Shown: positions 18,580 to 19,170 of the stretch, in pieces
How the letters are laid out: the number at the start of each line of letters is the position of its first letter
Numbering within the stretch: the stretch's first letter is position 1
DNA from: Escherichia coli
GTDB lineage: Bacteria; Pseudomonadota; Gammaproteobacteria; Enterobacterales; Enterobacteriaceae
Reading direction: 5' to 3' (one strand)
DNA length: 19,170 nt
NCBI RefSeq assembly: GCF_003334255.1
Contig: NZ_QOWU01000071.1
Made by a program: the position numbers and the translations under genes
Notes under the pieces: generated by a model
Database searches by the model: none
The model's input: the letters and a program-made list of their open reading frames with translations, nothing else
Told to the model about the DNA's origin: nothing

Positions 18580-19170
18580 CTGAACCGCCCCGGGTTTCCT
18601 GGAGAGTGTTTTATCTGTGAACTCAGGCTGCCAGATCATTGTTTCCGATGGAAGCATAATAAGCTTTTTCTGCTTCTGCCGGAGGAGTATGGCCCAGCCT
18701 TCCCAGCAATCGTCGATTGTTATACCAGTCCACCCACGTTAGTGTGGCCAGTTCCACTTCTGCACGGTTTTTCCAGCTCTTACGGTGTATTACCTCCGCT
18801 TTGTAAAGACCATTGATGCTCTCAGCCATCGCGTTGTCATACGAGTCGCCTGTACTCCCTGTTGATGCCAGTAATCCGACTTCTTTTAGTCGCTCCGTAT
18901 AGGCCAGTGACACATACTGAGAGCCTTTATCGCTGTGATGGATGGTGCCAGACGGACGACGGGCCCACAACGCCTGCTCCAGCGCATCCAGCACGAATGT
19001 CGTTTCCATAGACGATGAGACCCGCCACCCCACGATGTATCCGGCAAACACATCAATGATAAACGCCACATAGACGAAGCCCTGCCATGTGCTGAGTAGA
19101 GTAAGAGGCAGGGCGTAGTCGGACTATTTCCCTGCCTCTCCTCCCCGAACCGGACGTGCACCTTTCAGCG
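18580..19170 (-). mobile_element. IS3-family insertion sequence, partial (continues beyond window)
   Basis: Transposase DDE-domain ORF on minus strand; putative terminus TGAACCGCCCCGGG... beginning at 18580, 43 bp beyond the transposase stop. Confidence 0.6.
18623..19069 (-). CDS. IS3-family transposase (OrfB, DDE catalytic domain), C-terminal portion
   Basis: ...[19 protein letters not shown]..., [10 protein letters not shown] and [15 protein letters not shown] motifs typical of IS3-family OrfB. Same frame is open upstream to 19123 but an in-frame stop sits at 19124-19126, so the gene may be disrupted. Confidence 0.8.

Follow-up and report, generated by a model that had tools for sequence, protein, structure and literature searches.

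The original description of the group II intron E.c.I4 is reportedly that of Dai & Zimmerly in 2002 (RNA 8:1294). Studies have shown that E.c.I4 is inserted at specific positions in IS629, IS911, ISEc16, and ISEc31, and its population dynamics were analysed by Leclercq & Cordaux in 2012 (PMC3522654). The supplement of that paper lists full-length E.c.I4 copies, which span 2,271 bp (Table S3), and a fragment of 1764 bp in prophage CP4-6 of MG1655, which was named E.c.I4-tr1 and placed in class A (Table S2). The name E.c.I4 is given to copies with at least 90% nucleotide identity to the reference (PMC3522654).

In this study, we analysed a window, that is, a whole stretch of Escherichia coli DNA with a full length of 19,170 nt. 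The window almost certainly ends inside an E.c.I4-type intron, which lies in sense orientation in orfB of an IS629/IS1203-type insertion sequence (IS) on an IncI-complex plasmid. The intron is 2,270 nt long, compared with the 2,271-bp spans published for E.c.I4, and both occur in sense orientation at one specific site within the transposase gene of IS3-like elements, IS629 among them. Both encode an intron-encoded protein (IEP) without an endonuclease (En) domain, and the copies are often found on plasmids or other mobile elements. Nothing substantive differs between them in these features, and the intron of the window is one more copy, this time on an IncI-complex plasmid.

RmInt1, which resides in ISRm2011-2 of Sinorhizobium meliloti, is likewise En-less and has its natural homing site inside an IS transposase gene. 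RmInt1 belongs to class D, whereas the intron in this study is assigned to class A, and the host IS family and the host bacterium are also different. RmInt1 is a likely model for the mobility mechanism of the present intron. The host IS of the window resembles IS629/IS1203 (IS3 family, IS3 group) in its length of 1,310 bp, its TGAACCGCCCCGG termini, its orfA/orfB arrangement with an A6 run and an ALIL pseudoknot, and its DD(35)E residues. It differs in that the intron divides OrfB, separating the first catalytic residue from the second.

The 3' end of the intron and the in-frame stop

The last 611 nt of the window had a 100% match in two E. coli plasmids. Plasmid pDETEC45 (NZ_CP116070.1, hereafter L001) showed 0 mismatches to the window over all 5,611 overlapping nt, and plasmid p2-S1-CAM-02-A (NZ_CP145705.1, hereafter L007) showed 1 mismatch in 12,877 nt. 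All 2,270 nt of the intron are present in both plasmids, and the 502-aa ltrA is intact. In both, the window end falls 16 nt downstream of ltrA, and an N-terminal fragment of an IS3-family transposase is located further upstream. Positions were converted by window = 24171 - L001. The features at the window end are as follows.

19096..19170, minus strand: 3'-terminal 75 nt of a group II intron assigned to the E.c.I4 type (full length 2,270 nt); Rfam RF00029, with domain V cut by the window end
19147..19170, minus strand: 3' 24 nt of the 34 nt of domain V, CGCUGAAAGGUGCACGUCCGGUUC; Rfam alignment and sequence reading
19098..19144, minus strand: domain VI hairpin; ViennaRNA fold
19124..19126, minus strand: in-frame TAG in the distal loop region of domain VI; sequence and fold
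19095..19096, minus strand: 3' splice site; the intron ends with CUCUAC (19096) and the 3' exon begins with UCAGCAC (19095)

The Rfam model RF00029 (Intron_gpII, domains V/VI) matched L001 4989-5075 with 64.9 bits (E=1e-11, gathering cutoff 40), and both of these catalytic domains are intact there. An E-value search of the window alone gave a 5'-truncated match at exactly 19096-19170 (minus strand), with 37.9 bits and E=4.3e-6. The window-only Rfam scan at the gathering threshold gave no match to the intron, because domain V is cut by the window end. The 5' 10 nt of domain V, including the AGC triad, lie beyond this end. Domains V and VI are connected by a GG linker. In the ViennaRNA minimum free energy fold of L001 4986-5075 (-48.2 kcal/mol), the branch-point A is bulged at 19102 (L001 5069), 7 nt from the 3' splice site, and it is the sole bulged A. 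The intron ends with AC at 19097-19096, and its insertion splits a Val codon after the first base (G/TC, phase 1).

A sequence-only reading of the window had described a TAG at 19126-19124 (minus strand) in the frame of an IS3-family transposase, and it had suggested that this stop could be either the normal OrfA-OrfB frameshift junction or a disrupting mutation. The position and the frame of the TAG were borne out by the minus-strand translation of 19168-18623. The open reading frame (ORF) that shares the frame stops with TGA at 18625-18623 (minus strand), and its C-terminal end is NNDLAA. The identification of this C-terminus as an IS3-family transposase also held, with the spliced OrfB scoring 315 bits on NF033516 (cutoff 160). 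The TAG itself belongs to the non-coding intron RNA, where it falls in the distal loop region of domain VI. In the transposase frame, the 75 intron nt correspond to 25 codons, and non-coding sequence of this length should contain approximately 1.2 stops by chance alone (25 x 3/64). With only intron sequence upstream of 19095, the occurrence of a stop is statistically unremarkable. What is informative is the end of transposase homology at 19095/19096. The GTG-initiated 148-aa ORF at 19069-18623 is a by-product of mechanical ORF calling and not a gene.

The interrupted insertion sequence and its intron-less alleles

Downstream of the splice site, the window contains the right-hand part of the host IS.

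18581..19095, minus strand: 3' exon, the right-hand 515 bp of a 1,310-bp IS629/IS1203-type element of the IS3 family
18623..19095, minus strand: C-terminal 156 codons and stop of OrfB; translation
18581..18605, minus strand: right terminal inverted repeat, beginning with TGAACCGCCCCGG on the complementary strand
18578..18580, minus strand: GGC adjoining the IS end, a possible 3-bp target duplication

The in-silico removal of the 2,270 nt yielded a 1,310-bp IS with a continuous OrfB and a 108-aa orfA. This spliced IS was 99.1% identical over 1,310 bp to a copy named IS1203 by PGAP (an IS629 isoform), and it differed from intron-free copies in other genomes by 2-3 nt. The right inverted repeat and the left one (at L001 2011) share 13 perfect bases, with 22 of 25 positions matching. 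GGC adjoins the IS on both sides (window 18578-18580; L001 2008-2010), but the flanks are not contiguous, and the probability of such a match by chance is 1 in 64. On the left, the IS adjoins a 5'-truncated IS100 istA, and on the right, the dqlB region. We therefore dropped the GGC pair as proof of a simple IS insertion, given the truncated IS100 on the left and the unrelated sequence on the right. A 3-bp target duplication is uncertain, and the pair may reflect either chance or later rearrangements.

The spacing of 35 residues between the second catalytic Asp (GAT, 18931-18929) and the Glu (GAG, 18823-18821) corresponds to DD(35)E. The first catalytic Asp, which we take from general knowledge of the IS3 family to be that of the W-x-x-D-x-T-Y motif (WVADFTY here), is in the 5' exon, beyond the intron and outside the window. 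The intron is inserted in sense orientation in orfB, just after this W-V-A-D-F-T-Y motif. The earlier placement of the stop upstream of the catalytic core was thus inexact, as the intron lies inside the core, between the first and second catalytic residues.

A programmed -1 frameshift between OrfA and OrfB is a real feature of IS3-family elements, and the earlier reader's view was too short to exclude the stop being such a junction. However, this element has its own junction elsewhere. The A6 slippery run and the orfA stop (TGA) are located at L001 about 2383-2391, inside an ALIL frameshift pseudoknot (RF01497, 121.5 bits, L001 2346-2462). This site is approximately 2.6 kb beyond the window end on the DNA, and approximately 420 nt upstream of the exon junction once the RNA is spliced. 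In addition, the TAG-bearing sequence is absent from intact copies, and the sequence 5' of 19095 matches the group II intron model. We consider that the probability of the stop being a frameshift junction is practically nil.

The flanking coding fragments are labelled as pseudogenes by PGAP, which would fit a nonsense point mutation that inactivated orfB in an otherwise colinear transposase gene. Against this, no transposase homology exists upstream of 19095, the peptide there is translated domain VI, and intact relatives join TTACG directly to TCAGC. Hence, a nonsense mutation has hardly any chance of being the right explanation either. What disrupts orfB is an inserted group II intron, and splicing could in principle undo this disruption in the RNA.

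Intact relatives also decided the alignment that the sequence-only reading had proposed as a check. The protein reads ADFTYV/STWQGF without interruption (the slash marks the exon junction), and the stop lies outside the OrfB coding region, which is the outcome that this reading had named as its refutation. Many E. coli genomes contain the 300-mer of the in-silico spliced junction without a break and with 100% identity. One intron-less allele is on a plasmid of strain G6/7 (NZ_CP060062.1, 83500-89000, hereafter L006), in which both the IS copy and its insertion site are the same as in L001. Its neighbourhood is that of L001, with a YagK/YfjJ gene, istB, the truncated istA, the IS, and two dqlB genes, and PGAP annotates its transposase as intact with a programmed frameshift. 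The only differences between L006 and L001 in about 4.8 kb are a single block of exactly 2,270 nt and two SNPs. This exact block fixes the intron boundaries. The sequence-only reading was right in that the transposase gene is interrupted in the DNA itself. The two SNPs map to the 5' exon of the IS (positions -607 and -542). Independent intron-free copies carry the L001 bases at both positions, so the SNPs are private to L006. The two SNPs were also considered as traces of co-conversion or recombination with another intron-bearing IS copy, and we rejected this because independent intron-free copies share the bases of the intron-bearing allele and no co-conversion signal is left.

We speculate, with little confidence, that the near-identical IS629 alleles with and without the intron may be the trace of retrohoming in the very recent past or of a precise intron loss, and that the intron may also be a splicing-dependent switch of transposition. 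The idea of a switch comes from the position of the intron, which leaves the first catalytic Asp on one side and the other two DDE residues on the other. If it were true, unspliced transcripts would give a truncated OrfAB that binds DNA without catalysis and might inhibit transposition.

The complete intron, its relatives, and its proposed movement

In L001, the intron occupies 2806-5075 (2,270 nt), from GUGUGCCCGG to CUCUAC. Its ends agree with the boundary consensus (5' GUGYG, 3' AY), with GUGUG at L001 2806 and CUCUAC at L001 5075. The GUGUG end is outside the window. Past position 19170, we expect another 2,195 nt of intron, starting with the 5' half of domain V (GAGCCGGAUG), and then the 795 bp of the 5' exon, which should end with GATTTTACTTACG.

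Since the window shows just 75 nt of intron, we also considered that the source molecule might hold only a 3' remnant, truncated or rearranged past the window end, which would leave the IS permanently dead. Truncated or IS-interrupted E.c.I4 copies are indeed common, such as the K-12 ykfC locus (nt 1-1764), L002 with a nested IS1203, and H66, which has only nt 1434-2270. However, the complete intron and an intact ltrA are present in L001 and L007, the plasmids compared with the window over 5,611 and 12,877 nt, respectively. A remnant is therefore very unlikely, and we infer from these plasmids that the source molecule carries the full-length intron.

The 502-aa IEP matched TIGR04416 (group_II_RT_mat) with 341 bits (cutoff 300). 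Only RVT_1 (residues 86-332) and GIIM (356-421) were found in Pfam. With no HNH domain in the Pfam search and no Cys-rich C-terminus, the IEP has no En domain. Its nearest solved structure is LtrA (5g2x, E=2e-52).

The exon-binding site EBS1, CGUAAG, lies in a hairpin loop at intron nt 331-336. It forms 6/6 Watson-Crick pairs with IBS1, CUUACG (5' exon -6 to -1), and this 6-bp match is unique within domain I. In the variant intron of locus L005 (93.6% identical, ISEc15 host), C331>U matches the -1 G>A change of its target, which is one compensatory change. The candidate EBS2, GAGAUCA (nt 188-194, in a loop), would pair with UGAUUUU (-14 to -8) by 5 Watson-Crick and 2 G-U pairs, with no covariation support. 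The Rfam group-II-D1D4 families gave no match at E<=1 in L001 2780-3500 (the 5' ~700 nt of the intron). A CRISPR-DR8 match in the 5' part of the intron (E=0.28) was regarded as spurious. Intron nt 341 (L001 3146) is A in the window-type copies L001 and L004, giving a C-A mismatch in the stem that presents EBS1, and G in L002, L003, and L007, giving a perfect EBS1 hairpin stem.

We assign the intron to the E.c.I4 type, with an ORF of class A (reverse transcriptase and maturase, no endonuclease domain), and the name comes from the K-12 fragment and the published host range. The ykfC locus of K-12 (CP4-6 prophage) showed 99.7% identity to intron nt 1-1764. This locus is the published E.c.I4-tr1, so the intron falls under the naming rule through it. 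The ykfC copy is the same intron as a 3'-truncated, dead remnant without domains V and VI, and the window holds exactly this missing part. E.c.I2 and class CL1 were rejected as the identity of the intron, as the published supplement points to E.c.I4 and class A.

The intron was present in 2,669 of the 5,426 complete E. coli genomes. Each of the inspected loci had flanking IS3-family fragments, and the intron occupied the homologous codon position. The hosts seen were IS629-type elements (L001, L004), an IS911-like element (L002), ISEc31 (L003), and ISEc15 (L005), and the intron directly follows the D-x-T-Y(V/I) codons in L001, L004, L002, and L003. At L002 (NZ_CP104526.1, 1316-4898), IS1203 lies inside the ltrA of an E.c.I4 copy, which is itself inside an IS911-like element. 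This nesting indicates that the usual host IS of the intron can in turn disrupt the intron.

The arrangement of E.c.I4 in an IS629/IS1203-type element is already known and ordinary in E. coli. Homing of E.c.I4 into IS629-type elements has been described since 2002, and the present copy advances no open biological question. Its value lies in annotation. Thousands of E. coli records have pseudogenes labelled 'IS3 family transposase, incomplete' on either side of ltrA. These fragments are the two exons of a single IS that a mobile intron has split, and not separate remnants or products of nonsense mutation. The case also indicates that short windows can mislead, as a seemingly in-frame stop may belong to a different genetic element.

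On the basis of established group II intron biology, we believe that the intron probably reached this IS copy, or its ancestor, by retrohoming. A particle of spliced intron RNA and IEP would recognise the IS target mainly by base pairing between EBS1 and IBS1. The intron RNA would then reverse-splice into the DNA and be copied by the reverse transcriptase. Because the IEP has no En domain, priming would probably come from a strand of the replication fork, as with RmInt1. Transcripts of the IS should undergo IEP-assisted splicing, which would rejoin the ADFTYV and STWQGF codons and make a full OrfAB transposase possible. Unspliced RNA would give only a truncated protein, with the first catalytic Asp and without the other two catalytic residues.

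Neighbouring features on the plasmid

Other features of the plasmid were also found in the window.

6306-6455 and 11219-11375, minus strand: PK-repZ pseudoknot and hok/sok module
17177-17275, minus strand: dqlB; NF041473, 66 bits
17879-17989, minus strand: dqlB; NF041473, 63 bits

The PK-repZ pseudoknot (162.5 bits) indicates an IncI-complex (I1/B/O/K/Z-type) replicon, and the sok match of the hok/sok module scored 116 bits. A plasmid-borne phosphoethanolamine transferase of 511 aa is encoded at 11889-13424 (minus strand). All MCR models gave 18-27 bits, with cutoffs above 1,100, and we rejected it as an MCR colistin-resistance gene. Its best NCBIfam match was CptA (101 bits, cutoff 404). For the IncI1 transfer genes excA, traY, and traC, the PGAP annotation of the identical plasmid shows fragments only, and the conjugation region appears decayed.

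The two dqlB genes, which encode DinQ-like type I toxins, belong to a tandem duplication of approximately 699 bp at 17124-18121 (also 18281-18368). For each dqlB, Rfam matched an AgrB antisense RNA on the opposite strand, at 17536-17623 and 18281-18368 (both plus strand). The dqlB modules directly adjoin the right end of the IS.
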